A stretch of 64,000 nt of DNA. It comes from an uncultured Gemmatimonadaceae bacterium. Lineage in GTDB: Bacteria; Gemmatimonadota; Gemmatimonadetes; Gemmatimonadales; Gemmatimonadaceae. This document shows, in pieces, positions 31,747 to 51,019 of this stretch. The translations under genes were made by a program, and so were the position numbers. The stretch's first letter is position 1. Each line of letters begins with the position of its first letter. The notes under the pieces were generated by a model. It made no database searches and had not been told where the DNA came from. It was given only the letters and a program-made list of their open reading frames with translations. The stretch lies in contig CAWHHI010000016.1 in assembly GCA_963829055.1 (NCBI GenBank), positions 800,001 to 864,000 on the forward strand, read 5' to 3'.

Positions 31747-32805
31747 TCACCCCGGTTCGGGTTCCCGCGGCGGGCCGGGTAATTCGTCAGGCGGCGGGGT
31801 GGGCGGTGTCGCGTCGCCCGTATTCGGGAGCGACCACGGAAGGCTTCGCAGGAGCGCCTCGATCGCGCTCGCCGCCTCACGCCGCTCGGCTTCCTCATCC
31901 GCCCGCACGAGCGCCGCCATGCGCAGACGGTCGCGACGGCGCCGGATCACGTAGAACGGCATCACGAGGAACAGCGTCAGCGCCGACGCGATGGAAAGAT
32001 CGGCCACGAGCGCGAGACCGCCATAACGCCGCCGGGTCCGCTTGCGCCAGATCTCCTCGAATCCTGGTTGAGTCAGGCCGTAGGCCGCGCGCACGGCGGT
32101 CTCGAACCGACCGCTCTGCTTCCAGTACTTGAAGAACAGCGTTAGGCCCCGTTCGGGATCCTGCGCCGCAAGCTCGGCCACCGCGCGATATGCCAGCGCA
32201 TACGTCCCCTCGGCGCGCAGCGACCCGCCGGCGAAACCGTTATCGAGCGAATCGAGCGACGGCATTCCGCGGAACAGCAGAACGAGGTTCGCTCCCAGAA
32301 TCGCGTCGCGCGCGACCTCGTTCGCGGCATAGCTCGCGTACCCTTCGTCGAACCACCGCGGCGGCAGCTCGCCGAGCGCCTCGTGCAACGCGAGATGCGC
32401 GAGCTCATGGCGGAGCACCTCGATGGGGTCACCGGCGTCGGATCCAGCGCCGCGCCCCTGCATCACGATGCGGTTCGACTCCGGGAACGCGACGGCAGCC
32501 CCCCATTCGGGCGCCGTCGGACCGATCCACTGGCGAAACCGCTCACGATCCGGCGCGACGGCAATGACGACGCGATTGGACGGCCGCGGTAATCCGGGGA
32601 AGGTGTCACGCGCGGTCGCCGACGCGAGAAGCGACTTCGCCAGCTGTTCATCCTGAGGATACGCGGCGACAGTGAATCGGCCGCGGTCGAAGCGCATTGC
32701 TTGCTGCTGCGCGCGCGCCAAGCTCGGCACGCACAGAAGAACGCCAATAAGCGCGCGCAGCAGCCGCGGGAATCGGGAATCGGGAATCGGGAATCGCGGC
32801 CGCAT
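31747..32805 (-). CDS. Exported, membrane-anchored zinc metallopeptidase (peptidase MA-like)
   Basis: HELAH...PRWFDEG gluzincin-type motif, signal peptide and C-terminal TM; ATG 32805 lies in the loop of a repeat hairpin. Confidence 0.8.
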   Translation of the reverse strand: MRPRFPIPDSRFPRLLRALIGVLLCVPSLARAQQQAMRFDRGRFTVAAYPQDEQLAKSLLASATARDTFPGLPRPSNRVVIAVAPDRERFRQWIGPTAPEWGAAVAFPESNRIVMQGRGAGSDAGDPIEVLRHELAHLALHEALGELPPRWFDEGYASYAANEVARDAILGANLVLLFRGMPSLDSLDNGFAGGSLRAEGTYALAYRAVAELAAQDPERGLTLFFKYWKQSGRFETAVRAAYGLTQPGFEEIWRKRTRRRYGGLALVADLSIASALTLFLVMPFYVIRRRRDRLRMAALVRADEEAERREAASAIEALLRSLPWSLPNTGDATPPTPPPDELPGPPREPEPG

Positions 32806-32844
32806 GTTGCTTGGATTCCCGATTCCCGATTCCCGATTCCCGAT
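32768..32844. repeat. (GGGAATC)4-spacer-(GATTCCC)4 inverted heptamer element
   Basis: Arms at 32768-32795 and 32814-32841 are perfect reverse complements. Confidence 0.95.
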
Positions 32845-33692
32845 CAGTCCGGCGTCCCTCCGGCTTCCACGCGAGCCAATACCTCTGCGCACCGCTTTCC
32901 CCATGGATTGAACTTGTTCGCCGCCGCACCGGCGCGCCAAGCCTCGCGCGCGTCATCCGGTTGTTCGGCCAACCAATGCGCACGACCGAGCTCGTAGTAC
33001 GCCTCGAGGAGGTTCGGGCCAAGCGAGAGGCTCTTCCGGAAAAACGTCTGCGCGTCCTCGTACATCTCGCGCTCGAGGTACACGAGACCGAGGTAGTAGT
33101 GCGCGTACAGCGTCGCTTTCGCGTCATTGTCGAGGCGGATCGCCTTCGACAGGTGCTCGATGGCCTCGCCGAAGATGCGCTTCTTCAGACAGATGTACCC
33201 GACGTTGATGCGCGCCAGCGCGTTCGCCGGCTCCTTCATCAGCACGCGCTGGAAGTTCATCAAGGCGTCGTCGTACTTCTCCTGATGCATCTGCGCCCAG
33301 CCGAGCAGCGAGATCGCCTGCGGATCGTTAGGCGAGAGCTCCAGCGCCTTGCCCAGCGCCGCCTCGGCGGCCGGGTAGTCGCCGAGCGAGATGCGCGACC
33401 ATCCTTTCTCGATGAACGTGGATGCGCCAATGTGATCGGCACGCAGCGGTGGGGCGACGGGTTGCGGGCCGGTCGGATACGCGGCACCGCCCGCCGTTTT
33501 CCACCGTTCCGCGAGCTTCTTCACATCCTCTTTGAGGGCCGCGAGCTCGGTGATCTCGCGCTCGACGCCGCGGAACAGCTCGATGATCTCCGCCTTGAGC
33601 GCGGCACGATCGGTCGACGCGTCGGCGGCATCCAGGCGCGCCGACAGTTCGGCATATCGCGCACGCAGGTCGCCGGCGGGCACGTCAGGCAT
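32844..33692 (-). CDS. TPR protein with N-terminal coiled coil
   Basis: TPR units (ALELSPND, VLMKEPAN, AIRLDND, SLSLGPN). Confidence 0.85.
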   Translation of the reverse strand: MPDVPAGDLRARYAELSARLDAADASTDRAALKAEIIELFRGVEREITELAALKEDVKKLAERWKTAGGAAYPTGPQPVAPPLRADHIGASTFIEKGWSRISLGDYPAAEAALGKALELSPNDPQAISLLGWAQMHQEKYDDALMNFQRVLMKEPANALARINVGYICLKKRIFGEAIEHLSKAIRLDNDAKATLYAHYYLGLVYLEREMYEDAQTFFRKSLSLGPNLLEAYYELGRAHWLAEQPDDAREAWRAGAAANKFNPWGKRCAEVLARVEAGGTPD

Positions 33693-34170
33693 TCCGTGCC
33701 GGCTCCTCCGACGGTCGCTCGAGCACGATGCGCTCGTCAGTTGAAAACAGGCGTGGCACATCGAGAAATATGACCAGGCGCTCCCCGCGACGCACGACAC
33801 CGCGCAGGTAGCTCGCGGCGAGGCCGCGGAACAGCGTTGGCGGCGGAGCGAGCCGCGCGGCGTCGAGCACACTCACGTCCAGCACGCCGTCTACCGTTGC
33901 GGCAACCCACTCGTCATCGACGGTCAGCACGAGGATGCGCGCATCGCTCGGAATGGGCGCAGCGGGCAGCTCGAACCGCTTGCGCAGATTGATCACCGGG
34001 ACGACCCGCCCCTGATAGTCGATGACGCCTTCGATCCAGGGCGGGACGTTAGGCACCGGCGTCGGTGCTGCATAGCGAAGCACGCGCTCCACCGAGAAGA
34101 TGTCGGCGGCGAACAGCTCGTCGCCGAGGCGGAACGTCACGATCTGTGACGCGGTCGCGGGTGCGGTCAT
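33685..34170 (-). CDS. cheW: CheW adaptor
   Basis: VTFRLGDELFA, TPVPNVPPWIEGVIDYQGRVVPVINL. Confidence 0.92.
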   Translation of the reverse strand: MTAPATASQIVTFRLGDELFAADIFSVERVLRYAAPTPVPNVPPWIEGVIDYQGRVVPVINLRKRFELPAAPIPSDARILVLTVDDEWVAATVDGVLDVSVLDAARLAPPPTLFRGLAASYLRGVVRRGERLVIFLDVPRLFSTDERIVLERPSEEPARNA

Positions 34171-34883
34171 AACGAGTCCGGTGAAGCGACGGCGAGGCAG
34201 GTGTCCACGACGACATCGGCGTCGAGCAACGTCACGAGCTCGGTGCCACGCCAGACGACACCGAGCACCATGCCGTCGGCGTCAGTATTGGGTACCGGGC
34301 GCACCGTGTCGAGGGACACATCGAAGACGTCATCGACGGCGTCCACGGCCAGCGCTATCCGTGTGGCCGAGGGACGCATAACGAGCGTCATCGTGGGGCT
34401 GCCCATCGACGGGACGGCGAGCACTCGCGCGAGCGCGTACATGGGCAGGGTGCGGTCGCGCAGCGCGAAGATCCCGAGCATCGCCGGGGGAGCGTCGGGG
34501 ATGGCGCGGGCGTCCACGCCCTCTACAGCCTCCTCCACCGCTCGGAGCTCCGTGGCGAACAGCTCCAGCCCTACGCGAAACACGAGTAGATCCGCGTGCC
34601 CCTCCCGCGCCGCAATACGTTCGCGGAACGGCGTGACCGGCGCTGGCGGCGCCGCGAGCTCGAACGGCGGAAGCTCGGTATCGAACTCCTTCGGTCGAGG
34701 CTGCCCGTTGTTCAGTGAGAGTGCCAACGTGCGCAGCGTCATCCGAGCCGCGTGGTCGGCGCGGCTCAACGCTCCCGGCCCGCGCTCGGAGGGCGCAGGG
34801 ATCGCGAGGACAGGCTCGTGGGGGGTCTTTCGACGGAGGCGTGGCATTACCTCAAAGGACAGTCGTGCGATAGGACGCGTCAC
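34167..34883 (-). CDS. cheW: CheW-domain protein with N-terminal extension
   Basis: LLVFRVGLELFA, IPDAPPAMLGIFALR, AVDAVDDV; start uncertain. Confidence 0.8.
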   Translation of the reverse strand: MTRPIARLSFEVMPRLRRKTPHEPVLAIPAPSERGPGALSRADHAARMTLRTLALSLNNGQPRPKEFDTELPPFELAAPPAPVTPFRERIAAREGHADLLVFRVGLELFATELRAVEEAVEGVDARAIPDAPPAMLGIFALRDRTLPMYALARVLAVPSMGSPTMTLVMRPSATRIALAVDAVDDVFDVSLDTVRPVPNTDADGMVLGVVWRGTELVTLLDADVVVDTCLAVASPDSL

Positions 34884-34916
34884 GGGTGACGCCTGGCGGC
34901 GGATGTCCTGCGTGAC

Positions 34917-35990
34917 CTATGCCACACTCGCGCGCGTTCGACCGACCGCGGCGCTGATTTCCGCACCGATGTCCGCGAGCGGCAGCATCCGATCGGCGCC
35001 CGCCGTCGCCAGTGCGGCCTGCGGCATTCCATACACGATCGACGTCGCCTTGTCCTGCACGATGGCGTACCCTCCCCTGTCGCGGATCGCCCGGAGACCC
35101 TCCGCGCCATCACGCCCCATGCCGGTGAGCACGACGCCGACGACTCGCGCGCCGAAGCGCTGGGCCGCCGACCGGAACAACGGATCCGCCGAGGGGCGGA
35201 CCCCCCAGATGGGAGGCGTCTGATCCAGCGCGATCACCGGAGCTCCGGACACGTCGATGACACGCATGTGCATGCCGCCAGGCGCGACGTACACGCGCCC
35301 GTGCTCGATCCGGTCACCGTGGCGTGCTTCCGTCACGCCTAACGCGCTCATCGCGTTGAGCCGCGTCGCGAGGCTGGTCGTGAAGCCGGCCGGCATGTGC
35401 TGCACGACGAGCACCGCGGCATCCATGCCAGCCCGCAGCCTCGGAATCACTTCCGCGAGCGCACGCGGTCCGCCGGTCGATGCCGCGATGACGACGGCCT
35501 GCGTCGCCGCACCGCGCTCGACGAGCGTCGCGCCTCGCTGGACGAGGGACGGGCGTGCGAGCATCGGCACGCCGCGGAGGTTCACGCATGACGCAGCGCG
35601 CAGCGCATCCAGCAAGCGCGCGCCGAGCAGCTCGGCGGTGTCGCGCGCCGACCCATTCGGCTTGTGCACGAAATCGACGGCGCCGAGCTCGAGCGCGCGG
35701 ATCGTGAGCTCTCCACCGTTAGGCGAATCGAGGGCGCTCAGCATCACCACGGGACGCGGCGTCTCGCTCATGATGTAGCCGAGCGCCTGGAGGCCGTCCA
35801 GCTCGGGCATCTCGATGTCGAGCGTGACGATCTCGGGGTCGAGCGCGTGGATCTGCTTCAGCGCGTCATGGCCATTGCGTGCCGTGCCGACGACGCGGAA
35901 CTCGCCGCTCGTCGACAGAATCTCGCTGACCATCTTCCGCATGAACGCACTGTCGTCGACGACAAGGACAGTGCGTGGACTAGAGGACAC
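34917..35990 (-). CDS. cheB: Chemotaxis methylesterase CheB (REC plus esterase)
   Basis: VVDDSAFMR, LDIEMP, ASTGGP, VQHMP, TGMGRDG. Confidence 0.96.
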   Translation of the reverse strand: MSSSPRTVLVVDDSAFMRKMVSEILSTSGEFRVVGTARNGHDALKQIHALDPEIVTLDIEMPELDGLQALGYIMSETPRPVVMLSALDSPNGGELTIRALELGAVDFVHKPNGSARDTAELLGARLLDALRAASCVNLRGVPMLARPSLVQRGATLVERGAATQAVVIAASTGGPRALAEVIPRLRAGMDAAVLVVQHMPAGFTTSLATRLNAMSALGVTEARHGDRIEHGRVYVAPGGMHMRVIDVSGAPVIALDQTPPIWGVRPSADPLFRSAAQRFGARVVGVVLTGMGRDGAEGLRAIRDRGGYAIVQDKATSIVYGMPQAALATAGADRMLPLADIGAEISAAVGRTRASVA

Positions 35991-36498
35991 GCTCTCCCAT
36001 CTTGAGCGACTTCACGACCACGCGGCCATCCGTGACGTGGAAGTACACGCTCCGCCCGTGCTCACCGCCCGTGTCGGACGCGACGAGGGGAATCTCGGCC
36101 AGCCGAAGCACGCGCTTCGTGGCTTCGACGTTACGCTCGCCCATGTTGATACCACCGGACGGCAGCAACGACGCGAACATGCTCGCGCCGCCTACGATCT
36201 TCGCCATCGGCCGCCCCCAGGCGCCGCGCTTCCGCATCTCCTCGACGAGCATCGGGATTGCCGTCGACGGGAACTTCGCGCGGTTTTCGCTGTCGAGCGA
36301 AAGCCCTTCGCTGGGGAGCAGGATGTGCGCGAGACCACCAATCCGCGACGAGCCGTCGTAGAGCATGATGGCCACGCACGAGCCCAACCCGATGGTCGAG
36401 ATGATCGATTCGCCGTTCGCCACGGCGTAGTCGGCGACCTTGACCCGGATCTCCTGCACTTTCGGATCGGTCACATTGGGCTCATTCACGTTAGGCAC
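35980..36498 (-). CDS. cheD: Chemoreceptor deamidase CheD
   Basis: TIGLGSCVAI, GLAHILLP, KIVGGASMF, GERN, DTGGEHGR. Confidence 0.94.
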   Translation of the reverse strand: MPNVNEPNVTDPKVQEIRVKVADYAVANGESIISTIGLGSCVAIMLYDGSSRIGGLAHILLPSEGLSLDSENRAKFPSTAIPMLVEEMRKRGAWGRPMAKIVGGASMFASLLPSGGINMGERNVEATKRVLRLAEIPLVASDTGGEHGRSVYFHVTDGRVVVKSLKMGERVL

Positions 36499-36500
36499 GG

Positions 36501-37319
36501 CTACCGGCGACGAAAGATGCGCTCACGCGGATCGACTGCGGCGAACAGGGAACGAGTCGGGCCCAACAACGTTTCGACCTTACCGAGAATCAGAAAGCCA
36601 CCCGGCGCCAGCGCATCGTAGAAGCGCTGGAAGAGATGCTCCTGCGTTGCACGGTCGAAGTAGATCAGGACGTTACGACAGGTGATGAACTGCATACCGC
36701 CCGGAGACGGATCGACGATCAGATCGCGCCGCTCGAACGACACGAGCGGCCGCACCTCCGGCACGACCTCGAACGGCGGTCGCAGGGAGAAGTAACGGCG
36801 TCGGATATCATCGGGCGTATCGGCGAATGCAGCCTCGGCGAACTGCCCGCGGCGCGCAGCCTCGAGGCTCGCGCGATCGATGTCCGACGCCAGCACCTGC
36901 ACGCGCGACGCGTCGGCCGTTTCACCCCGCATCGCCGCGTGGCGATGCAGCAGAATTGCCAGCGAGTACGGCTCTTCGCCCGACGAGCAGCCCGCGCTCC
37001 ACCCACGGATGGGACGCGTAGCCCCCTCCCAGAGTATCGGCACCACGAGGCGCGCCATGGCATCGAACGTCGACCAGTTTCGGAAAAGTTTGGTGACGTT
37101 AATGGTCAGCGTATCGATCAGCCGTTCGTACTCGACGGCGTCGCGATCGAGGAGCGCAGCGTAGTCGGAGAACACGTGAACGCCTCGCGCGCGCATGCGG
37201 ACGGCAATGCGGCGCCGGAGGCACTTCTCCTTGTAGCTCGAGCAGCCGAACGCGCGCTCGCGGGCGATCTTTGCCGTCAGCGCGGCGAATCCGGCGTCAT
37301 CGACCTCGGTCGTCATCAT
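36501..37319 (-). CDS. cheR: Chemotaxis methyltransferase CheR
   Basis: TINVTKLFR, WSAGCSSGEEPYS, CRNVLIYF, LAPGGFLILG. Confidence 0.95.
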   Translation of the reverse strand: MMTTEVDDAGFAALTAKIARERAFGCSSYKEKCLRRRIAVRMRARGVHVFSDYAALLDRDAVEYERLIDTLTINVTKLFRNWSTFDAMARLVVPILWEGATRPIRGWSAGCSSGEEPYSLAILLHRHAAMRGETADASRVQVLASDIDRASLEAARRGQFAEAAFADTPDDIRRRYFSLRPPFEVVPEVRPLVSFERRDLIVDPSPGGMQFITCRNVLIYFDRATQEHLFQRFYDALAPGGFLILGKVETLLGPTRSLFAAVDPRERIFRRR

Positions 37320-38933
37320 CCCGAGGTTCTCGCCGTCTCCAGATTCGTGCGCGCAATCGCATTCGTCGGCTCGAGCTCGAGCGCGCGCTTCCAGCAGCGG
37401 TTTGCTTCTTCGCGCTCCTGCCGGCGATACCGGAGGTTGCCGAGCTTGAGGTAGACGTCGGCGCCAAGGTTCGGGCGGTGCTTCACGGCGCGGAGGTAGG
37501 ACTCGAGCGCGTCGTCGTAGCGGCCCGACCGGTAGTAGCTGTCGCCGAGATTCTTGTGCAGCTGCGGCAGCGTCGCGTCCTCGAGCGCGCCTCGCTCGAA
37601 GGCCACGGCGGCATCCGGGTTCCGGCCGCGACGCTCGAGGGCGACGCCGAGGTTGTTGAGCAACACCGCCGAGTGCGGATGCGCACTCACACCATTCGAT
37701 AGCAAGGCGATGGCGCGATCGATGTCATTTGCCAGCGCCGCGGTGAGCGCCGCGTAGTGGAACCACGCCGCGGGCTTCGGCCGACGATCCCAGAGCGCCG
37801 CCGCGTCGTTCATCGCGGCGTCCGCCTCGGCGATGTCGCCGCGCCGCAGCGCGAGCACGCCCGCCGCGAGACGCGTGCGTGGATCGTGACCGCCGACGCG
37901 AACGGCCTGCGCCAGCACATCGGCCGCTTCGTCGTACCGTCCGAGACGCTCCAGCGCGTACGCCAGATTGTGATAAACGGCCGGATTGATCGCGCGGCGT
38001 GACACCATCTGCTGGAACAGCGTGACGCCGTCCTGCCATCGCCCCTGTCGCAGCAGCACGAGTCCGGCGTAGAACGTCGCGAGCTCATCGCCCGGACGCA
38101 GCTCGTTCACGCGCCGGAATTCGCGCACGGCTTCGTCGAACATGCCGGCCTTGTAGAACGCGACGCCCAGGTTGCGATGCTCGGCCACACGCGACTCGGA
38201 CGTGACAGCTTCGACGGGCTTCGTCCGACCGACGCGGTGCAGGAAGCCCGCGGTGATGAGACCGTACAGCGCTTTCCCGACGTCGAACTCGCACGAGCCC
38301 GGATTCGTCCACGAGACCGGTGACATCGCGCTTGCCGTCGACGAGCGAGACGAGCGTCTCCTGCTCCGCCGTGAGCGTGGGGGCGCTGTCGGCGAGCCTG
38401 ACGCGATCGACCTCGAAGACGAGGTCGAAGCTCGGAATCTTCTTCTCGATCAGACTCCATTCGTCCACCCGTCGCGCGCCTTCGAGCAGCAGCGACTCTG
38501 GATTGATGGAGACGAGAAAGTCCTGCTCGTCAGGCGCGACGTCCGCCTCGAAGTTGAACGTGCCCTGATTCCACGTGAACAGGTAGAACACCGCCTCTTC
38601 GATCTGCAGGCGGATGTAGCGATGCAGTTCCTCCCGTGCGATGAACTCGCGCTCGACGAGGATCTCGCCGAGCCGCGTGTCGCGCTGCGTGTTCTGTCCG
38701 GCGACCGCCTCGTCGAGCTGCGCCTGGGTGATCAGGCCATTCTTCACGAGGATGTCGCCGAGTCGATCGCGGCGGTTCACGATCGACGCGTAGCAGATGC
38801 GACCCTTGTCGAAATAGATGTAGCCGAAGCTCTGGCGATGGGTGACGCTCAGGCAGCCGCTCTTCTTGCCCATGGAGAGCAGCTGCAACACGTCCGGGAG
38901 ACTCGCCTCGCTGAGGCTTCCCTTGATGGCCAT
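37316..38933 (-). CDS. DUF4388 (PATAN-like) domain plus type II secretion-N-like segment plus TPR protein (frameshift near 38292)
   Basis: [45 protein letters not shown], then TPRs in ORF 37316-38326. Confidence 0.85.
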
Positions 38934-40855
38934 CAGCGCAGTTCCTCGATGACACGGCCATCCAGATCAGGCCATTCCATCACGATCTTTTCCGCGTCGA
39001 GGAACGACTTGTCCCCGATGGTCGGGACGGACACCGGCGTGGCGGCGCCACCGGAGTTGAGCTCACGCCTAACGATGGACATGGTGATCGGCCCGCCAGC
39101 GGCGCGCGCGGAGTGGGCGACGCGGTCGACGACCGACTCCACCTCGCCAGCACCCGACACCGGCAGCTCGGCGAGTAGCGCCGCCACGCCAGGCTCGGCG
39201 TCAGGCGCTCGATCCATGAGCATGCGCGAGTACAGCGCCTCGCGTAGCGTGCGATCCGGCGGCTGGATCGCGACCACGAGGCCGCCGTCGAAGCGCGACC
39301 GAAGGCGCGCCTCGAGCTCCCCGATCTCGGACGGTGGCCGATCGCTCGCGAGCACGACCTGCCGACCCGCGCTGTGAAGCGCGTTGAACAGGTGGAACAG
39401 CTCTTCCTGCGATCGCTCTTTCCCCGCCAGCGCATGGACGTCATCGACGATGAGCGCGCCCGCGGCGCGATAGCGCGAGCGCCACCGGTCGACGGTGCCT
39501 CCCTGTAGCGCGGCGATCAGCTCATCGACGAACTGCGAACCGCTCACGCACGCGACGGGGCCCGACAGCCCTTCCTTCCGACGCAGCGCGTTGCCGACGG
39601 CGTGGACGAGATGCGTCTTGCCCACGCCCGGGCCGCCGTGCACGAACAGTGGATTGTACTGCGAGCCGGGCGCGTTGACAGCCGCGTCCGCGGCGCGCAG
39701 CGCAAGCTGATTGGACTTGCCCGCGAGGAGTGTCTCGAGCGTGTAGGCTGGCCACGGAGCAGGCGGTGGATCGTGAGCGGCGATCGCCTGCTCGACACGC
39801 ACCTCCGCTTCCGCAACGCGCTGTGGGTCGCGAAAGACGTCGAGGCCGGCGAGTCGCGGATCCAGCAGCACGGCCTGCGCCTCGAGTTGTTCGAGACGAG
39901 TCACGCCGCTCGCGAACGCGGCGTCGAGCGCATCCACGTCCGCTTCTTCGGTCAGCGAGAGCGCGCGGTCCAGCATCGTCGTCCGGTAGCCAGCCTTCTG
40001 CCAGTGTGCGATACGCTCGCCGAGTCGCACGCGCCACCCTTCGACGTGCTGGGCGACAGCGACCGCGATGTCCGACAGGAAACCAGCAAACTCGTCGCTC
40101 GCCCCGGGTGTCGCACCGCCGAACTCGGGCGTCACGCGCGCCCCGGAAATGATCGCCCGGACGTTCGCGGGCGTCACGGTGCGCTCGCCTAACGCTTCGT
40201 GGGCCGCCAGCCGGTTGAGCGCGCCCTGCAGCTCGCGCACGCTGCCGCACGGCAGGCGCGCGAGCTCCTCGAGCACACCATTCGCGAACGTCATCTCCCG
40301 TTCCGCGCACTTGTTGCGGAGAATCGCGACGCGGGTTTCGTATTCCGGCAGGCCGATGTCCACGATCAACCCACCGGCGAGGCGCGTCACCAGGCGCTCG
40401 TCGACGTCGGCGATCTCCGACGGAGGCCGATCGCTCGCCATGATGATCTGACGCCCACTGCCCTGCAGCGAGTTGAAGATGCGGAGCATCTCGCTCTGCG
40501 TCTCGCGGCGGCCGGTGAGGAACTGGACGTCATCGAGCAGCAGCAGATCGACGCGCTGGTACAGCTGCTTGAACGCTTCCGCGTGGCCGGCGGAAATCGC
40601 GATGTGGAGTCGGTCGACGAAGTCATCGAGCGGCACGTACTCGATGACGAGCTCCGGCTGCAGCTGCTTGGCGGCGAACCCGATGGCGCCGATCAGGTGC
40701 GTCTTGCCGAGGCCGGACGGGCTGTAGATGAAGAGCGGGTTGTACGTGGCTCCGGGCGACTCCGCGACGGCGCGGCCGGCCGCGACCGCGAGGCGGTTCG
40801 ACGCGCCGACGACGTAGTTGTCGAATCGAAATCGTCCGTCCAGGAGCAGACTCAT
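38933..40855 (-). CDS. Protein with two tandem DnaA-type AAA+ modules and no DnaA domain I or IV
   Basis: Module 1: [10 protein letters not shown]...[17 protein letters not shown]...DDVQ. Module 2: [17 protein letters not shown]...DDVH...[10 protein letters not shown]. Confidence 0.9.
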
Positions 40856-41469: not shown

Positions 41470-41471
41470 GG

Positions 41472-41945
41472 TCAGATCCTGTCCGAACAACTTCGCCAGG
41501 TTGCGGTTGAGGTCCGACTCGAAGTCCACGAGACCCGGCGCGACGCTCGCGATCGCGGCCGATGGCGTCGCCGCGGCGAGGCGCGCGCCCAACTCCTTGA
41601 AGTAGAGCCGCACGAGGCCGATCGAGGTGGTGTCGTCGAACACGGTCAGAAGAATGTGCGCTCCACGCGCCGTTGGTAGCTCGCCAAGGAATATTTGTCG
41701 CTGGTTCCCGGGATGGTGCATCGTGGTGAATGCGGCTGCCATCGAGCTGCCGTCCGATCTCCGATCCGGTCGCGTGAATCGCCGCGGCGAGCGCGCAGGC
41801 GGACATGACGTCGATGCGAACGGGTGAACCCGTGTTGGGCAAGCACGCGTCCACTCGACTCGAGCAGCAGCACCAGCCTAACGCGCGAATCGTCGATGAA
41901 CCGGAGCAGCGGCTGCTCCATCCACTGCTCGACGGCGATTCTCAT
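41472..41945 (-). CDS. MglB-like roadblock protein (2-3 apparent indels)
   Basis: Pieced across frames: [40 protein letters not shown], with a C-terminal helix [14 protein letters not shown]; directly upstream of mglA. Confidence 0.75.
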
Positions 41946-41955
41946 GATCGCACGC

Positions 41956-42306
41956 TCACGTGAGCGCCCTCGCGGCGCGCATCATCTCGACCCGCAGAAG
42001 GCCGATGTTCGCGCGCGCTTCCGAGATCGTCACCAGCACGAGGTCGTCGCGGCCGGCAGCACAGATCCCGCCGCGTTCCGCGTCCAGGCGCAGGAACGTG
42101 ACGGTGCCACAACCGGCAGCACCACACGCGAGACGTGCCTTGCGATGCAGCGACGCAGCCAGCGCGGCGACGGCCTCGGCCTGGACGCCGATCTGCACGT
42201 TGGAGTCGATCGAGAGACCGTCGCGCTCCGAGACCACGAAGCTTCCCACCACGCCGCGGTGACGGGAGAGCATCGACAGGAGCTCCGCGTAAGGCGTCTT
42301 GTTCAT
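41956..42306 (-). CDS. Roadblock/LC7 domain protein
   Basis: GVVGSFVVSERDGLSI, AVAALAASL, ANIGLLRVEM. Confidence 0.85.
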   Translation of the reverse strand: MNKTPYAELLSMLSRHRGVVGSFVVSERDGLSIDSNVQIGVQAEAVAALAASLHRKARLACGAAGCGTVTFLRLDAERGGICAAGRDDLVLVTISEARANIGLLRVEMMRAARALT

Positions 42307-43290
42307 GACACCCTCGCGAGCCAGTCACGCGCGCGGCCGAGCGCGCGGTCCAGCAGCAATCGCACGAGACCGACTGGCGTCTGCCGCGATGCGGCGACGA
42401 CGAGCAGGCTGCCCAATGGCGCGGGCGTCATGGCGACGACGGCGGCATCGGCCTCGACGAGCAACGACGTCCACGCACCGAGGCCCAGATGGCGCATCGC
42501 GCGCTCCGCCTCGCTGCTCACCCCCGCCAGCTCGGCTGCAACGATGTCGGCCACGTCGTGGCCGTTCGCGTCCTGGTACGAGCCCGCGAGCACGAGACCG
42601 TCGGCATCCACCAGCAACGCGGTCTGGTCGGGTCCCTCGAGCGCGGGAACGAACAGCTGTCGCGCGCGAGTGGGGTCGGGTGCGGGGTATTCAGGGATCG
42701 CGAACGGCGCAGCGGTTGACTGGTGCGCGCACATCACTCGAAACGGACGGCTCCGCCGGCCGTCGTGAGACGATCGCGTCAGGCGGCGAAGGCATCGATA
42801 CCTCAGCAGGCATTGCCTCCGCAACCATCGTGTGCGCACCGTTGGCCCGTACGCCGTTCGACGCGGTGTTCGCCACATTCGCGGCCTGCGAGCCCCGCGC
42901 GAATCGCACGTGCGCCAGTGCCGCAGCGACCGCGGGGTTCTGCCCGTCGGCAGCGGAGGACGAGAGCCGCCGTTCGGCACTCTCGAAGTCGCCGCGTCGA
43001 AAATCAACGAACCCGAGCCCGAGGCTCGCCTGCGCGTGCGACGGATCCAGACGCAACGCCATCTCCCACTCGTCGGCCGCGCGCTCGACATCACCACGGT
43101 CCGCGTGAATACGCGCTAGCACATCGTGCGCGTCGGCCAGATACGGATGGCGATCCAGGCCACGCAACGCAACACGCAACGCGATATCGAGCTGTCCCGC
43201 GCGACGCAGCGCATCCGCGAGCGGCAGGAACACGAGGCTCGACGGATCGCGCGCCAGGTCATCGCTCAGACGACGAATCTCGTCAGCCAT
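42303..43290 (-). CDS. TPR plus roadblock/LC7 fusion protein (frameshift near 42730)
   Basis: N-terminal DPSSLVFLPLADALRR TPRs (ORF 42691-43329); C-terminal LLVDADGLVLAG...PVGLVRL (ORF 42303-43097). Confidence 0.75.
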
Positions 43291-44432
43291 CATCGACTCC
43301 CTTGAGCAGCGCGCGCAGTCGGACCACACAGTCGAGCATCTCGCGGACGCGGGGCACAGCCGGCCGATCGCCCGCCTCCATCAAGTACCGCTGCCACGAC
43401 AGGATCGCCTGGTCCATCCCCGCGCTGCGCGCCGCGGTCGCGCCAAGCGCGAGCAGCACCTCGGGGTTGCGCGGCTCGATCTGCGCCGCGCGGCGGAGCG
43501 CGTCCAACGCCTCGGACTCGCGCTCGAGCCGCATGAGCGACCGCGCGACAAGCACCTGCGGCTCGGCGCGCGTGGGCGCGGCGCGACTCGCTGACATGGC
43601 GGCCGCGAGTGCCTCGTCGAGGCGTCCGTCGCGAAGTGCCTGACGCGCGAGCTCGATGTGCGGCGCCGGATCATCGCCGGGAAGTGGCTCGACGATCGCG
43701 AGCTTCTCCGCCGACCCGGACCTGAATGATGCCGGTGGAAAGCAGACCGTACGCGATCTTCGCGACGTCGAACTCGCTGCGTCCGAGGCGCATCGCGATG
43801 CCGCGCAGATCGGTCTGGCCGTCGATCATCGCCAGCATCTCCCACTCGTTCGGCAGCAGATCCAGCAGCGACGGATGATCCTCGTCGATCGGCGCGAGTA
43901 CGGGCACGACCGCGAGATTCGGGATCTTGTGCGAGATACGAGCCCACTCATCGATGCGTCGAGCGCCTTCCATGAGGAGCGACTCCGTGGAGATGCGCGC
44001 CACTGCCTCCGTCGTGGCGTCAGAGGACGGCCCCTCGACGAACGAGAAGAATCCTTCCTGCCACGACATGAGCTCGAAGACGACCGTCTCGATCTGGCGT
44101 CGCACCTGCCGCTCCAGCTCGCGCCACGTTAGGCAGCCGGCCTCGACGAGCAGCTCGCCGAGCCGCTTGCCGTCGGCGCGCTGCGCCTGCGCCGTGCGCG
44201 CCCGCTCGAGGTCACCCTCCGAGATCTTCCCGGCCTTCACGAGCAACGCGCCGAGTGGATGCGGGTTGGTGCGGATGGAGGCGGACACGACACGGCCCGA
44301 TTCGAAGCTCACGATGCCTTCGTTGTCGCGCAACGCGGACGTCACGCGCAACGACCCCGTCTTCCGGCTCAGGTCGAGCAGCTGGAAGACGTCATGGATG
44401 CCGAGCTCGCGGAGCGGTCCCTCGATCGCCAT
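43283..44432 (-). CDS. DUF4388 domain plus TPR protein (frameshift near 43717)
   Basis: MAIEGPLRELGIHDVFQLLDLSRKTG, LLMEGARRIDEW; the shifted frame joins the TPR ORF 43283-43597. Confidence 0.82.
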
Positions 44433-47278
44433 TACGCGGCTGGCTCCCGTGCGGCGAAGATCCGTTGCAGGTCGGTGGCCGTCCGCGTGTCTCGACGCGC
44501 ACGCCGCGCGTACTCGCTCGCGGGCTCGAGGTCGACGACTCTGCGCCAGCGATCGATCGCGTCACGGTATCGGTGTTGATCAGCCGCCAACACGCCCTCG
44601 AAGTACAGGGCGCCCACGTGTTCCGGATCGAAGCGCAGCACGCGCGCGAACGCGACGGCGGCGTCACTGCGTCGCGTGCTCTCGAACAGCGTCTCGCCAA
44701 GCGATGTCAGCGCGTCGAGATTGTACGGGTCGCGCTGCAGGAGATCAACGAGCAGCGACATTGACTCCGCGTGGCGCTGCAGTCGGCGGCGCAGCGACGC
44801 GAGCGCGAGCGCTGCCTCGGTGTACGTGGGCACCGAGTCGAGGGCCGACGCGAGCTCCTGCTCGGCGTCGGCGTTCAACCCCTTCATCTCCAGAATCGTC
44901 GCCAGCTGGTACCGCACGACCGCAAAGTCAGGATCGAGCGTGAGCGCATGACGATACGCCTCGATCGCACTCTCGAAGTCGCCGATGGATCGCGCGACGT
45001 CGCCGATCTGCTTCAGTACGTCGGCTCGCGCAGGCGCACCACGACGCGCTCGCTCGAGCGCCTCGAGTGCCGCCGCGGGATCACCACCGTCCGCACGAGC
45101 GGTTGCCGCGAGTATCAGCATCTCCGACATCGGTAGGCGACGGCGCTCAACAGGTCCTCGGCCAGTGGACGCGCTTCGGCGCCGCGCCCAAGCATGATCA
45201 GCACGCGCACCTCTCCCGCGGTGGCGCGCCGAGCGGCGGGAGACGCGACACCGGACGCATCGGTCGCCGCGGAGCGGGCGCCGCGATACCGCTCCAGCGC
45301 TTCGCCGTACGCACCCTGCTTGGCGAACACGTCGCCTAACAACGTCAGCCCCTCCACCGCTTCGCCGCCACGCCCCAGCACTCGGCTCGCTTCCGCGGAC
45401 GCGCGATCGAGCAAGCCTTTCGACAAGTAGTCGGCAGCAGCCGAATACGGGGTGCCCGCCGGAGTGGGCGGCACGGGAGTGGGGGCGACAGGCGCGAGCT
45501 CGGTGAACAACGAGTCGAGCACGCCGATGTCAAACGCGAACTCCTCGACTGATCCGTCGGTGCGCTTCTCGCCGCCGAGATCAGGCACGATCGCGAACTG
45601 TGGATCCTCGAACTCCAGGTCGATCGCGAGCTCGAACTTCTGCTGCACGTAGTACGGATCGATTTCGAGCGCGCGCTTCGTCGCCTTGAGCGCACCCTCG
45701 TAATCGCCGAGGTTCGAAAGCACGAAACTGAGATTGTAGTGCGCCTCGGCGTAGTTCGGCCTGGCCTGAATGGCGCGGCCGTACGCGTTGCGGGCGTCCT
45801 CGAGCTTCTTGAGCTCGACGAGCACGAGCCCCACACCGTTCCAGGCCATGGGCTGTTCGGGCTCGAGCTGAAGCACCTGACGATACGCCTCGAGGCATAA
45901 CGGCAGACGCTTGTTCTTGAACAGCAGGAGCGCGAGGTTGAGCCGCGCCTTGATGAACGACGGCTGCGCCTTGAGCGCGAACCGGAACGCCTCGACCGAT
46001 GCCTCGGCGTTGCCGATGTGATACAGCGCGACGCCGAGGTTGTTGAGACCTAACGCGTACTTCGGATCGCACGCCACGCCGCGCCGGTAACTCTCGGCGG
46101 CTTCGGCGTAGCGGCCGTCCTGATGGAGCGCGATGCCGCGTTCATTCCAGAGCTTCGGGCTGTCCGGACGCGTCGCGAGCAGCTTGTCGTACAGCTGCGC
46201 GGCCATCGCCGGCTCCTTCTTGAGCAGGTGCACCTCGGCCATCGCCTGCAGCACCAGCTCCGCGTCCTCGCCTCGGTCGGCCGCGAGGCGGTATTCGCGA
46301 AGCGCTTCGGCGTAGTAGCCCTTCTGACGGAACGCGAGACCGAGGTTGAAGTGCGCGAGCTGTCCTTCCGGCGCGACGGCCATCTCGCGATCCAGCGCGC
46401 GCGCCGCGCGTTGGGCGACGACGGCTTCGTACGTCTGCGGCGTACTGCGGTCGAGCGACAGATTCGCGTGCGCACGGGATAGCGCGGGATTCAGCTGAAT
46501 CGCGCGCTTGGTCGCTTTCTGCGCTTCGTCGTGACGCCCCATGTCACCGAGCACGAAACCGAGCAGGTAATGCGCGTCGGGATTGTCGGGGGCGAGATCG
46601 ATGGACCGCTTGAGTGCGTGCAGCGCCTCGTCGTTCAGCCCTCGGTTGTACAGCACCTCGCCGACGTAGAACTGGATGACCGCGCTCTGCGGATCGATCG
46701 CGAGCGCGCGGGCGAACCAACGCTGCGCCGTCTCGAGGTCGCCGCTTCCCTTCTCAGCGAGTCCGAGCTGGACGATGGCGCCGATGTCGTCGGGATAGAA
46801 GCGCAGGAGGTCGGTGAACTCCGCGACGGCGTTGTCCACCTGGCCGAGGAGCGCGTACGTGCGGCCGAGCTCCCAACGGGCCTCGCGGTCGTCGCCGTGC
46901 AGCCGCAACCGATCGCGCAGCTCCGACACGCGGCGGTCGTAGTAGCCGGTGTTGAAATAGGCGATCTCGAGATTGCGCTGCGCGACTTGCATTTTCGCGT
47001 CGAGCTCGAGCGCACGCGAGAATGCGGCGACGGCCTCGCCTAACAAGCCCTTGTTGTAGTAGAGAACGCCCAGGTTGTTGTGCGCGCCGGCGTCCGAGGG
47101 ATCAATTCGGCGGGCGAACGAGCGGAGGACGTCGCGGTCGCGCTCGGACGTCAGCTGAGCGTTGGGGACTGGCACTGGGGACTGGGGACTGGGGACTGGG
47201 GACTGGGGACTGCTGCTCGACGAACGAGCAGACGTCGGTTGCGAACAGGTCGTCAGCAAGGGAGTCGGGAATCGTCAT
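44432..47278 (-). CDS. Large TPR protein, about 940 aa (frameshift near 45135; start ambiguous within the heptamer element)
   Basis: Many canonical TPRs (AHNNLGVLYYNKG, AHYNLSFV) across ORFs 45115-47259 and 44432-45130. Confidence 0.82.
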
Positions 47279-47351
47279 GCCGCGGCCTCGGGCACGCAGC
47301 CACCTAACGCGCGTCCCCCAGTCCCCAGTGCCGAGTCCCCAGTCCCCAGTC
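47163..47351. repeat. (GGGGACT)n-spacer-(AGTCCCC)n inverted heptamer element
   Basis: About 7 units at 47163-47211 and about 5 units at 47315-47351. Confidence 0.93.
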
Positions 47352-47354
47352 GGT

Positions 47355-47975
47355 TCATCCCAGACGAACCGCCCTGAGAATCGCCTGAAGCGATGCCACG
47401 TCAGGCAGCAGCAGGAAGAATCCGCGCAGACGCTCGTGCAGGTCGTGCATGTAAAACTCGCTCTCGACGCAGAACACGTAGTCGCGGTCGGTGCCGAACT
47501 GCAGATACGCGGTCGTGAGCACCGCGCTCGACATGTCCACGGCGAGACTCGGCGGCGAGGGCAACAGCATCAGCCCCATGAAGTCGCTCAGCGCATTCAT
47601 GTACGCGCCACTCAGGATGTTGCCCGCTTCCTTGATCGCGGACTGCTCGAGCTCTCCGAGCTCCTTGGACGTCCCAGCTGGCCGACGCAGCATCAGCTCC
47701 GAGAGCCTAACGGCGGTCGACTTCGGAAACACGAGCAGCGTGCGCCCGGTGAGGTCGCCCATCATGTGCATGAGCACCGCGGCGACCGGCTCTTCCGGTC
47801 CGGAGATTTGCGGCGGGACATCCTCGAGCTTGGCGATCGTGATCGTCGGCACGCTGATCATGATCGTGCTGCCGGTCATCTGTGACAGCGCAGTCGCTGC
47901 GTGACCGGCGCCGATGTTCGCCACCTCGCGCAGCGCGTCCACTTGGACCGGCTTCAGATCCCTCAGGTCGTTCAT
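47355..47975 (-). CDS. cheC: CheY-P phosphatase CheC
   Basis: Two ExxN sites: DALREVANIGAGHAATALS and SAIKEAGNIL. Confidence 0.94.
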   Translation of the reverse strand: MNDLRDLKPVQVDALREVANIGAGHAATALSQMTGSTIMISVPTITIAKLEDVPPQISGPEEPVAAVLMHMMGDLTGRTLLVFPKSTAVRLSELMLRRPAGTSKELGELEQSAIKEAGNILSGAYMNALSDFMGLMLLPSPPSLAVDMSSAVLTTAYLQFGTDRDYVFCVESEFYMHDLHERLRGFFLLLPDVASLQAILRAVRLG

Positions 47976-47985
47976 TCGCGCTCCG

Positions 47986-49940
47986 CTAAAAGAGACTGCT
48001 CACATCGAGGATGAGCGCCGGAACCCCGTCGCCGAGGATCGTCGCCCCGCTGAACACGGAGAGACCGTCCCGCACCGCATCGAACGGCTTGATGACGATC
48101 TCCTGTTGTCCCGTCAATTCGTCCACCACCATTCCGGCGCGCCGGTCGGCCACCTCCAATACGACGACTTGGCCACCCCCCGCGTCGCGCCTTGGTAATC
48201 GGACCACGTCGCGGAGATGCATCAGGGGCAGCACATCGCCGCGGAGCACGAGAACTTCGGCCCCCTTCACGTGGCGAATCGTGTTCGCCTCCAGGTGCAC
48301 GGTCTCGTTGACGTGCGTCATCGGAATCGCGTACGTCTCATCACCAACCTTCGCCAGCAACGACCGCACGATCGCGAGCGTCACGGGCAAACGCACCGTC
48401 ACGGACGTCCCCTCGCCTTTGGTCGAGCGGATGTCCACGGTGCCGCCAAGCGCTCGCACTCGGGCATGCACCGCGTCGATGCCGACGCCGCGACCGGAGA
48501 GGTCGGTCACCTGTCTTGCCGTCGAGAACCCGGGGCGTGCAATGAGACGAACCAGCTCGTCATCCGTGAGCTCGGAGCGGCTCGCGTCCATCAGCCCTAA
48601 CTCCTTCGCACGAGCGAGCACGCGGTCGCGGTCGATGCCCTTGCCGTCATCCGTGACGCGGATCACCACCGCGGACCTGTCGCGCGCCGCGGTCAGCGCG
48701 AGCCGCCCGGTTGGAGACTTGCCCGCCGTCGACACGAACGTCCGGCGCTTCGAGGCCGTGATCGATTGCATTCCGCAGCAGATGCACCACAGGATCGCCG
48801 ATCTCATCGAGCAGCGAGCGATCGAGCTCGATCTCCTGGCCTGAGACCACGAAGTCCACCTGCTTGCCCAGCGCGCGTGCGGCATCGCGGACGACTCGCG
48901 GGAATCGATCGAACACCTGCCACACCGGCACCATGCGACTCGTCATGATGCCGTCCTGCAAGTCAGCCACGAGGCGCGATGCCTGCGTGACGGTCTCCGT
49001 CAACGCCGGCTCGTTGATCGTGGCGGCGAGCTGCTGCAGTCGGCCCCGTGTGATCACGAGCTCGCCGATGAGGTTCATCAGCGTGTCGAGGCGGTGGAGA
49101 TCGATGCGGATGTGTCGGTGTTGCCGCGCCGGCGCAAGCTCGCTCGCGCTGCCCGCCGAGATCGGGAGCAGGTCGGGCAGGTCACCGTTAGGCACGGTAG
49201 CCACGTGTCCGTTCGTGCTCGGTGCCGCCCGCGTTATCACGATATCGGCGACGTAGCCGGCTGCCCGAAGCGCGCGGTCGATCTCGTCATCCGGTGCCGA
49301 CGTATCGAGCCCAATCGTTAGGCGTCCAGCGAACGCCTCGTCGCTGAACGTGCTCGGATCAGGCGTGGTGCTCACGACGGTAGCGAGTGCCCGCGCGCGC
49401 TCGAGCACGAGATACGCACGAACGCCTGGCATCGGCGTGTTCGCCTCCTGCGTGACCACGACCGTGACCGGGGCGACGGCGCTCGCGGCGGCGCGCCTGG
49501 ACGAGCGCTTCTTCCGCGGCTTTGCCGTCGCTGTCGGTGCCGGCGAGTGGACGGCTGGGTTCCGTCGCGGCCGCGGCTCTCAGCGCCGCGATGGTCGTAC
49601 TCGCATCGACGTCCGATTCGCGTCCCGCGACCGACAGCTCGATCGCGCGCTCCAGCATGTCGGTGGCGGCGAACAGCGTGTCCATGAGCGGCGCCGAAAC
49701 AGCGCGCTCGCCGCGTCGGACGAGATCGAGCAACGTCTCGAGCTCGTGGGACACCTCGGCGACGACGGCGTAGCCCATCGTCGCGCTCATCCCCTTCACC
49801 GTGTGCACGGCGCGGAACAGTGCGCCGACCGGCTCTCGCGCCGTCGGCGTTCGTTCCAGCTCGAGCAGCGCGTGATTGATCGCCGAGAGATTGTCCTGAC
49901 TCTCGGTCAGGAACAGCTCGGCGTACCGGGAGGTGTCCAC
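47986..49940 (-). CDS. cheA: Chemotaxis histidine kinase CheA (frameshifts near 49480 and 48735)
   Basis: Hpt LFRAVHTVKG; LDTLMNLIGEL; HLLRNAIDHG; DDGKGID; SGRGVG; C-terminal CheW domain. Confidence 0.93.
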
Positions 49941-49980
49941 GGAAAACGCTCAGCGATGAGCGTTCAGAGCGCGATGCGGC

Positions 49981-50343
49981 CTATCCGAGCACGCGCTGCA
50001 CCGCTTCCAGCACGCGACTCGGCTGGAACGGCTTGACCACGAAGTCCTTCGCGCCAGCCTGAATGGCCTCGACCACGAGCGCCTGCTGGCCCATCGCGCT
50101 GCACATGAGCACCTTCGCCTGCGGATCGAACTTCGTGATCTCGCGAACGGCGTCGATGCCGCCCATGTCGGGCATCACGATGTCCATCGTGACCAGGTCG
50201 GGTCGAAGCTGCCGGTATTTCTCGACCGCCTGCACGCCGGTCTCCGCCTCGCCGATGATCTCGAATCCCGCCTGCTGCAGGATGTCGCCGACCATGGTAC
50301 GCATGAAGATCGCGTCGTCACAGATCAAAACGGTATGGCTCAC
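49981..50343 (-). CDS. cheY: Single-domain response regulator CheY (Bacillus/Thermotoga-like)
   Basis: ICDDAIFMR, TMDIVMP, CSAMGQQ, DFVVKPF. Confidence 0.93.
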   Translation of the reverse strand: MSHTVLICDDAIFMRTMVGDILQQAGFEIIGEAETGVQAVEKYRQLRPDLVTMDIVMPDMGGIDAVREITKFDPQAKVLMCSAMGQQALVVEAIQAGAKDFVVKPFQPSRVLEAVQRVLG

Positions 50344-50425
50344 GTTCCACTCCACACCAAAGGACGGGACGATTCGTACCACGTTATGCAGCGACAGATC
50401 TCGACGATGTCTCGCCGGTACTCAG

Positions 50426-50506
50426 GTCGTCAGTCGTGAGTCCTAAGTGATCAGTCGTGAGTCCCAGGGACTGACAACTGATGACAGACGACTGATGACT
50501 GACAAC
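50426..50506. repeat. Degenerate inverted heptamer hairpin (GTCGTSA-type/TGAYRAC-type arms)
   Basis: gtcgtca gtcgtga gtcctaa gtgatca gtcgtga gtccc A gggac tgacaac tgatgac agacgac tgatgac tgacaac. Confidence 0.8.
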
Positions 50507-50560
50507 TTGTCACTCGCCATGCTGACTCGCGTTCTGTCTCTGATGCAACCACTGGTGCAG

Positions 50561-51019
50561 TCACGCCATTACTTGCCGTACGACCGCGGGGATCTCGAGT
50601 ACTATGACGACTCCGTCGTCCAGATGTCCCAAACCGCGCACGATTCCGCCGCGTGCCAGATCACCCGTCGCGGCCTCGAAGCGCTCCGGCGGCATCATCT
50701 GCACGTCGCGCACGTCATCGACCGCCAACCCGACCTGTTTGGTGCCGAATTGGGCGAGCACGATGGACCCGTCGTCTGCGCACGTCGACCCCGCGAGCCG
50801 AGTCGCCAGATCGATTACCGTGACGATGGCGCCGCGGAGGTTGACCAGTCCGCGGACGTACGCCGGGGCGCCCGGGAGCCGGGTCGCATGACGGATCGGA
50901 ACGATCTCTCGTACCGCCGCAATGTCACAGCCGTACACCGTGCCCGCCACCGCGAACAACAGCAGTCGGAGTGCGCCTGTGTGATTCGCGTCAGTCGGTG
51001 CTGTCGCTGTAGAAGCCAA
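50561..51019 (-). CDS. cheW: CheW adaptor
   Basis: VREIVP, TRLPGAPAYVRGLVNLRGAIVTVIDL, GLAVDDV; start uncertain. Confidence 0.92.
   Translation of the reverse strand: MASTATAPTDANHTGALRLLLFAVAGTVYGCDIAAVREIVPIRHATRLPGAPAYVRGLVNLRGAIVTVIDLATRLAGSTCADDGSIVLAQFGTKQVGLAVDDVRDVQMMPPERFEAATGDLARGGIVRGLGHLDDGVVIVLEIPAVVRQVMA

Follow-up and report, generated by a model that had tools for sequence, protein, structure and literature searches.

Here we describe an array of 19 genes in which a chemosensory system is interleaved with an MglA/MglB polarity GTPase module, two PATAN-domain adaptors and an ATPase built from two DnaA-type domains. The array occupies positions 31747-51019, minus strand, of the window, by which we mean the whole 64,000-nucleotide stretch analysed (GenBank assembly GCA_963829055.1, contig CAWHHI010000016.1, positions 800,001 to 864,000), whose host, an uncultured soil bacterium of the Gemmatimonadaceae, belongs to the Gemmatimonadota. 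It is real, conserved among relatives and, as far as the literature was searched, undescribed: a search without subscription journals or bioRxiv supplements found no published account of it, in line with the sequence-only reading of the window, which knew of no characterised system arranged in this way. We propose, as an evenly balanced proposition, that an F1-type Che core, a dedicated set of MglA, MglB and roadblock proteins, PATAN-MshEN-TPR adaptors and the tandem ATPase together set where and when type IVa pili act. A wider and more tentative idea is that the AAA+ module of DnaA may also serve as a signalling switch, here as a split-face pair docked on a cyclic di-GMP (c-di-GMP) PATAN adaptor that would join a Che kinase and a private GTPase to steer pili, the same parts recurring in Thermoplasmata (where the N-terminal domain may be PATAN-like) and in MshEN-DnaA-DnaA fusions.

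The sequence-only reading had listed a packed minus-strand run of 19 genes with the non-che genes set between two che halves. Pfam and tblastn searches with the intact locus of a same-genus genome (L011) recovered all 19 in the listed order, at 70-99% identity per gene; from rluD to the last TPR gene of L011, start and stop codons overlap at 11 of 18 junctions, and only one junction exceeds 60 nucleotides. Six of the 19 window genes carry frame changes (cheA, the large TPR gene, both DUF4388-TPR genes, the TPR-roadblock fusion and mglB). Short-read contigs from four runs of four studies have one base fewer at 38291, 41480/1, 41733, 41817, 42720/1, 43711, 45124 and 45142, and all eight differences fall inside the five broken genes covered by the stretch tested; cheA, outside that stretch, is intact in all three same-genus loci that span it. 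Because the same-genus copies are intact and the short reads lack the extra bases, we attribute the breaks to errors in this assembly (7.8 Mb, 86% complete) rather than to decay; frame changes also affect two genes outside the array, ileS within the window and the genuine dnaA elsewhere. The base composition (GC content) of the array does not differ from that of its flanks. Promoter and terminator scans were uninformative, with four promoter-like sites against 1.5 expected, three of them inside genes, and terminators no more frequent than by chance.

The first che half comprises cheW1 (50561-51019; Pfam CheW, E 2e-29; 77% identical to L011), whose start overlaps the end of rluD, cheY (49981-50343), a single receiver that keeps the phospho-accepting Asp and finds its best solved match in Thermotoga CheY (1tmy, E 2e-50), cheA (47986-49940) and the phosphatase gene cheC (47355-47975; two ExxN motifs; Thermotogales CheC model, E 1.5e-51). 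The second half holds cheR (36501-37319, by Pfam), cheD (35980-36489, catalytic Cys kept), cheB (34917-35990, receiver plus methylesterase), cheW2 (34167-34847, with an N-terminal extension) and cheW3 (33685-34170, by Pfam), CheC and CheD being thereby accompanied by CheR and CheB. CheA has the five classic domains (Hpt, P2, dimer, HATPase and CheW) and no receiver; interrupted by two frame changes here and intact at 647 residues in L011, it has no detected counterpart elsewhere in the genome, and its best NCBIfam model is that of haloarchaeal CheA (518 bits versus 391 for the E. coli type). The best models for CheC and CheD are those of Thermotoga, both under the cut-off. No chemoreceptor gene lies within the array, and the five receptor matches in the genome all fall outside the window; the one of these five that was tested aligns gap-free over 305 residues with Thermotoga receptor 2CH7, which we take to be of the 44H class, and with gaps against an E. 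coli-type chimera. On these matches of CheY, CheC, CheD and receptor the Che core is F1-type (Bacillus/Thermotoga-like), in line with the Bacillus- and archaea-like chemotaxis that the sequence-only reading associated with CheC/CheD, and it stands in the cheW-cheY-cheA-cheC order of the Dif genes.

Among the inserted genes, mglA (40852-41469) matches Myxococcus xanthus MglA at E 1e-71 and, aligned to structure 5ymx, retains the G1 motif, the intrinsic Arg, TVPGQ and NKxD; the Arg and TVPGQ motifs are kept in 54 of the 55 loci listed. The preceding gene (41472-41945, three assembly insertions) is MglB by profile, matching solved MglB at E 6.5e-17, with a conserved C-terminal helix, and is itself preceded by two further roadblock domains, one in a stand-alone protein of 116 residues (41956-42306; Pfam Robl_LC7 E 5.5e-8 for the L011 copy, to which it is 92% identical) and one in a TPR-roadblock fusion (42303-43290, assembly insertion at 42720). 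The identification of both as MglA and MglB therefore stands, catalytic motifs included. The further equation of MglA with the Myxococcus polarity GTPase holds for the family and fails for this copy: a canonical mglBA pair sits elsewhere, behind dnaX-ybaB-recR, and scores 286 bits to M. xanthus MglA versus 244 for the cluster copy. Because the closer copy lies elsewhere, we regard the cluster MglA as a dedicated second paralog; two MglA copies occur in most genomes of the order. As side observations, the canonical pair (L136:6680-11839, G000:C16) stands in the order dnaX-ybaB-recR-small open reading frame-mglB-mglA-pgsA-cinA-grpE-dnaJ, and its MglA carries about 35 extra residues after NKRD. 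Loci without mglB and both roadblock genes (L036-L038, L058-L067, L072, L074, L075) keep mglA, and in most of them TRRDR replaces TQTDR before the catalytic Arg, possibly a sign of an MglA that is re-partnered or free of its GTPase-activating protein (GAP). In genus g43 (L039:10385-10969, L255:10463-11032) the cluster MglA, the large TPR protein and the first PATAN adaptor are strongly diverged or shortened, while the roadblock proteins, MglB and the ATPase stay.

Three further inserted genes encode a large TPR protein and two putative adaptors. The large cytoplasmic protein next to cheC (44432-47358, insertions at 45124 and 45142; 954 residues in L011) consists of TPRs only, has no hydrophobic helix and is SgmX-like in architecture. 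Both DUF4388 proteins have PATAN domains split by an MshEN-type insert and followed by a winged helix-turn-helix and TPRs; we call them PATAN1 (43283-44432, insertion at 43711) and PATAN2 (37316-38933, insertion at 38291). A c-di-GMP motif model matches only three places in the genome, namely PATAN1, PATAN2 and the N-terminus of pilB. In PATAN2 the tandem RLGxx(L/V/I)(L/V/I)xxG motif (38610-38765) is intact and above the cut-off, its first Arg being kept in 56 of 60 copies, and from these motifs the PATAN adaptors are predicted to sense c-di-GMP. The genome also encodes a pilus machine (pilB-pilT-pilC, further pilT copies and pilM); a PilB/GspE-type ATPase whose C-terminus carries a fused receiver domain (L137:7006-9228, G000:C12) is a candidate point of signal entry to the pilus motor. 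Published precedents, from sources available in part, tie such proteins to pili: PATAN domains bind PilB1/PilC in Synechocystis (10.1101/2021.06.11.447907), PATAN genes often adjoin mglAB (PMC4316618), SgmX, a protein of 14 TPRs, acts as an MglA effector for pili (PMC7668184, PMC9811614), a TPR-only effector that activates pili in M. xanthus (PMC7668184), and a STRING search links two PATAN proteins to SgmX by co-occurrence (PMC11580455).

The gene between mglA and PATAN2 (38933-40855) encodes a 640-residue ATPase made up of domain 1, a helical linker (39752-40096), domain 2 and a C-terminal tail (38936-39025). The two DnaA-like modules seen in the sequence-only reading are tandem copies of DnaA domain III: the predicted model (predicted local distance difference test, pLDDT, 82.6) shows them joined by the linker, with a low-confidence tail, and the fold matches B. 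subtilis DnaA domain III at 1.6 Å. Databases name the protein a chromosomal replication initiator because it scores above the cut-off of the DnaA model; DnaA domains I, II and IV were found neither by Pfam nor in the predicted model, a same-genus dnaA matches it only through domain III, and a complete genuine dnaA adjoins yidC in the genome. Against the Hda model it reaches 164 bits with a cut-off of 194.8, it has two AAA+ domains and not one, and an Hda-type N-terminal clamp-binding motif was not apparent by eye, no search for it having been made. In a quick unrooted tree the two domains fall into separate clades on long branches, neither of which includes the host DnaA.

A comparison of 58 two-domain orthologs (gap-free alignment, B. 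subtilis numbering), using residue lists from the parts available of 10.1101/2022.03.18.484894 and PMC6669920 and a division into two faces read from the order of a figure legend, indicates that the halves keep different surfaces. Domain 1 retains Walker A and B, sensor I (57/58), sensor II (57/57), F218 (53/58) and G317 (55/58) and has lost H231 (0/58) and R206 (3/57); domain 2 retains H231 (45/58), R202 (56/58), R206 (54/58) and R264 (56/58) and has lost F218 (4/58) and E183 (2/58), with an unsteady sensor I (31/58). Of the single-stranded DNA residues (I190, K222 and T225), I190 is kept in 0/57 and K222 in 2/58 in domain 1, against I or V at 190 in 52/58 and K222 in 45/58 in domain 2. Among 20 Gemmatimonadota DnaAs, by comparison, each of the compared residues is kept in 19 or all 20, position 190 being I or V. 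Because one half keeps the ATP site and the other the arginine-finger face, these patterns suggest a composite switch in which domain 2 would act in trans on domain 1, and they make it probable that the ATPase is not an initiator.

The linker, with no Pfam or Atlas match, consists of an acidic-aromatic first helix and one copy of a repeat, and the tail carries the conserved motif EKxxWxWP..R.IEELR. In 63 of 64 loci (three rows being duplicates) the tail-bearing reading frame ends 3-37 nucleotides before the PATAN2 start, and the 64th locus also carries the tail. Six loci of three genera that lack both ATPase domains keep a reading frame of 60-75 residues equal to the first linker helix plus the tail. 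Only PATAN2 adjoins the tail throughout, even in two loci with neither che nor mgl genes (L044 and L081), and from this constancy we infer that the ATPase docks on PATAN2 through two motifs, the first linker helix and the tail. A likening of the tail to the C-terminus of RomR found no support, there being no meaningful PDB match and no NCBIfam match for two mini-proteins, and a record that seemed to fuse linker and DUF4388 (P0141) was rejected since it reads as frameshifted. Outside the array, a second family (L248:5363-7360, P0246, P0205) combines an N-terminal domain like the large subunit of Fe-hydrogenase with the same linker and a tail-like motif.

In general, che and mgl genes keep company in the loci compared. 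In a comparison of 20 out of 31 genomes, chosen by ATPase match, cheA lay upstream in 20/20 and mglBA beside the ATPase in 19/20. A linker profile built from 18 rows and run on 151 sampled genomes of the phylum matched 102, comprising 97/108 in the order, 5/28 in other orders of the class and 0/15 in other classes; the linker was not found in the remaining 49. Among the CheA matches listed, to which all further counts of cheA linkage and of flagellated genomes are likewise limited, 84 of the 102 genomes have a cheA in the same orientation as the linker and 5-11 kb upstream of it, for which reason we do not regard the association as chance; the other 18 comprise nine that end at a contig edge and nine unlinked to cheA. 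Of 66 fetched loci, 45 span the distance from rluD to the last genes (three duplicates dropped); these are kin and not independent, most were chosen through the ATPase, and rluD was itself a selection rule. They hold cheA in 41, mglA in 41, both in 39, mglB in 32, the full ATPase in 42 and PATAN2 in 45, PATAN2 being the sole gene kept throughout. The interleaved order extends across the order and into some other orders of the class, as the reading of non-che genes between che halves would have it, and the array spans three families plus other orders with CheA identity down to 40%. Full-length ATPase matches in named genomes, among the matches listed, come from Gemmatimonadota and one 'Bacterium HR33', and four CheA loci from other classes (L051-L054) are arranged differently.

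The neighbourhood comparison called for by the sequence-only reading thus places che and mgl/TPR/DnaA-like genes at one locus, and we consider it likely, from gene order, that the Che and Mgl blocks form one pathway, although not an obligatory one: the joint retention of cheA and mglA supports the suggestion of a single pathway, and the separate loss of each block in some lineages limits it to a modular system. The che genes are lost or decayed with the Mgl/TPR/DUF4388/ATPase block intact in at least four genera (L048, L049, L050, L253, L254, L256), the Mgl block is lost with the che genes kept in L047, L249 and L018, and L044 and L081 are reduced to rluD-ATPase-PATAN2. PATAN2 stays between cheC and cheR in L047 and L249 despite the loss of all other inserted genes. 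We infer that the adaptor PATAN2 and the ATPase are the stable core, to which the Che and Mgl blocks are detachable inputs.

How such an array might work can be sketched in four steps, in which components and gene order are observed and each interaction and output is a proposal. Receptors encoded elsewhere would signal through CheW-CheA to CheY, with CheC resetting and CheR, CheB and CheD adapting the response, a flow modelled on known Che systems. CheY-P would then bias the cluster MglA, for which MglB and the two extra roadblock proteins may serve as GAP or GAP cofactors. MglA-GTP, together with the TPR proteins, would place the PATAN adaptors at a pole, where their PATAN domains could engage PilB/PilC, with c-di-GMP acting as the gate by way of the MshEN motif. 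Finally, to judge from the residue patterns, domain 2 of the ATPase would complete the ATP site of domain 1 with its arginine-finger face, and the resulting composite nucleotide switch would dock on the downstream PATAN2 through the two short motifs. By analogy the array most likely works like the Frz-MglA-SgmX control of pili, with an F1 core, an MglA of its own and a DnaA motor put to new use as its building blocks, and it is likely to steer pili rather than flagella or DNA replication.

Several observations weigh against this proposal. Besides the separate losses of the blocks, no receptor was found in four of five genomes with a che-less or che-decayed locus. PilM occurs in 142/151 phylum genomes, array-less ones included, and co-occurrence therefore does not single out pili. 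The MshEN motif of PATAN1 is degenerate, its first Arg kept in 11/54 and its model score just above the cut-off. The last codons of the ATPase tail double as a Shine-Dalgarno site, so the conservation of the tail may be explained in part by the ribosome-binding site that it encodes for PATAN2. Nor do the residue patterns compel a composite site, since the arginine finger of domain 1 is retained (54/58), as are Walker A/B of domain 2, and single-domain forms exist (L041, L043); a predicted template-modelling score (pTM) of 0.47 marks the modelled domain packing as uncertain.

The same Che core could instead have a Dif-like output, the core and its embedded module controlling exopolysaccharide, adhesion or biofilm, with pili as an upstream sensor rather than a steered motor. 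The cheW-cheY-cheA-cheC order, which matches Dif and in that respect also counts against pilus steering, the presence of CheC and CheD, a receptor in the length class of 2CH7 and the c-di-GMP motif of PATAN2 all fit such an output. Dif is known to control exopolysaccharide, and clusters of the Dif-like kind, whose receptors are 44H, are linked to the production of matrix (PMC2577667, available in part). We nevertheless hold it unlikely, in that the array has no difA-like receptor, Dif clusters as described in the available part of PMC2577667 hold no MglA or PATAN genes, and the precedents for MglA and PATAN concern motor placement.

Somewhat less probable again are two separate systems on a long housekeeping transcript running from ileS-dksA-lspA-rluD onward, an ordinary F1 Che system and an unrelated MglA/PATAN/ATPase module inserted once. 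Each block is lost independently, the array follows rluD in 45/45 spanning loci (by the selection rule) and kin share gene order by descent, as such an insertion would allow; the overlap of cheW1 with rluD suggests that the array may indeed share the housekeeping transcript. However, the insert lies in the midst of the che genes and has overlapping stop and start codons at its borders with either half, it is kept across the three families and other orders at CheA identities down to 40%, and PATAN2 remains between cheC and cheR when all else is deleted.

A coupling to the cell cycle, raised in the sequence-only reading, would have the tandem ATPase act on real DnaA in the manner of Hda, as arginine finger or filament cap, to time replication. 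The arginine-finger face and single-stranded DNA positions kept by domain 2, the close fold match to DnaA and the rsmH and penicillin-binding protein genes 3.6 kb downstream on the same strand speak for it; the idea is weak because the ATPase lacks the DNA-recognition parts (domains I, II and IV, and in domain 1 the single-stranded DNA residues) and a true dnaA exists. With the Hda model below its cut-off, both domains in clades apart from Gemmatimonadota DnaA, ATPase domains dispensable in six loci that keep the two motifs and no linker found in 49 of the phylum genomes, we judge it improbable. That the Che core is a flagellar chemotaxis system outliving its flagellum in most lineages is more doubtful still, and is very improbable: CheY is closest to that of Thermotoga and, a point against pilus steering too, the cluster CheA is the only one detected in 9 of 22 flagellated linked genomes, but FliG was not found in this genome (86% complete) or in 62 of the 84 linked ones, where the array is intact (47 of the 62 without another CheA match), a separate cheA lies within 45 kb of fliG in nine of the 22, and family f10 has FliG in 9/9 genomes and the linker in none.

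Placed beside known systems, the proposed pilus-steering array resembles the Frz-MglA/MglB/MglC/RomR-SgmX system of M. xanthus in its chemosensory input, a group 1 MglA with all catalytic motifs, MglB with extra roadblock proteins, a large TPR-only protein and a pilus machine in the genome. Unlike Frz, whose kinase FrzE is a CheA-CheY fusion, the array has a CheA without fused receiver, accompanied by CheC/CheD. It also differs in using a second MglA paralog, in having no RomR gene, and in adding the PATAN-MshEN adaptors and the DnaA-derived ATPase; of the Agl-Glt gliding machinery, GltG stayed below the cut-off, with one tail-domain match only. Its genes lie in one array, whereas in M. xanthus mglA lies apart from its partners (PMC4316618, available in part). 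With Dif of M. xanthus and the F1-type Dif-like clusters of Geobacter it shares gene order and a receptor of 44H length, and with Geobacter also CheD and CheR, but it is receptor-free and has nine non-che genes inserted. As with cyanobacterial PatA-type regulators, PATAN/DUF4388 proteins are encoded in the chemosensory locus of a piliated cell, although here fused to MshEN, winged helix and TPRs and not to a receiver domain. The ATPase shares the initiator-clade AAA+ fold and motifs with DnaA domain III and Hda and departs from them in its tandem copies, the complementary loss of two filament faces, the repeat-type linker and the conserved tail. The closest published trace is a row in Table S2 of Wuichet and Sogaard-Andersen 2014 that lists Gemmatimonas aurantiaca GAU_1409 as PATAN>MglA>-PATAN> (PMC4316618), the arrangement of the roadblock-less loci named Gemmatimonas; in the main text of that paper, as far as available, a term search found nothing about chemotaxis genes, TPR or DnaA for the locus.

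Parts of the ATPase recur beyond the phylum. Among the best 150 of 400 matches, a search with the linker-repeat profile found 21 long proteins with 4-23 repeat copies; of the 20 clusters looked up, two were named Thermoplasmata and one Wallbacteria, and four of the 21 proteins end in a DnaA ATPase domain, three of them with zinc ribbons. One DnaA-bearing repeat protein in turn found 32 relatives, one named Thermoplasmata. Three proteins of about 1990 residues (P0303, P0304, P0306) line up a PilB-type MshEN, a DnaA ATPase, a long coiled coil and a second DnaA ATPase. Because they are found with the same repeat or with a pilus-type c-di-GMP domain, DnaA ATPases without DNA recognition appear to recur. 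The archaeal N-terminal domain did not support a PATAN-like nature: hhalign against PATAN gave probability 0.2 and E 0.26, no better than controls, and the Atlas matches (DUF2226 0.86, PatA_N 0.84) are leads only. A metagenome scan for the gene context of the archaeal-type proteins matched over the DnaA domain only, hits that we take for ordinary dnaA loci. We note further that P0268, P0301, P0124 and P0121 are giant repeat proteins of the Thermoplasmata type ending in DUF835, a DnaA ATPase or a zinc ribbon, and that I190, K222 and T225 are almost fully conserved in the archaeal-type DnaA domains, which nevertheless lack domain IV.

The motility and cell polarity of Gemmatimonadota, a phylum abundant in soils, are almost unexplored. 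The link from Che kinase to MglA, still indirect in Myxococcus, could be dissected here in one compact locus, for which a natural deletion series already points to the core pair. The array also exposes a class of DNA-blind DnaA ATPases, archaeal ones included, that annotation pipelines name initiators; if the switch reading is true, its parts in Thermoplasmata and in MshEN-DnaA-DnaA fusions are filed as replication initiators or unnamed ATPases. The residue-level predictions (the ATP-holding domain, the arginine-finger donor and the two docking motifs) can be tested with purified proteins.

The array closes with two conserved genes, one encoding a protein with a helical N-terminus and TPRs (32844-33692), kept in 41/45 spanning loci, che-less ones included, and one encoding a Peptidase MA family metallopeptidase with a C-terminal hydrophobic helix (31747-32840), the last gene in 38/45. 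Upstream on the same strand (50991-57309) lie genes for a purine nucleoside phosphorylase, an unknown reading frame, ileS, a dksA/traR zinc finger, lspA and rluD. Downstream, also on the same strand (25856-31183), a gene for a 589-residue exported TPR protein is followed by the rsmH and penicillin-binding protein genes in a dcw-like arrangement, and a good sigma-70-like site (10/12) lies just past the array at 31624-31596.

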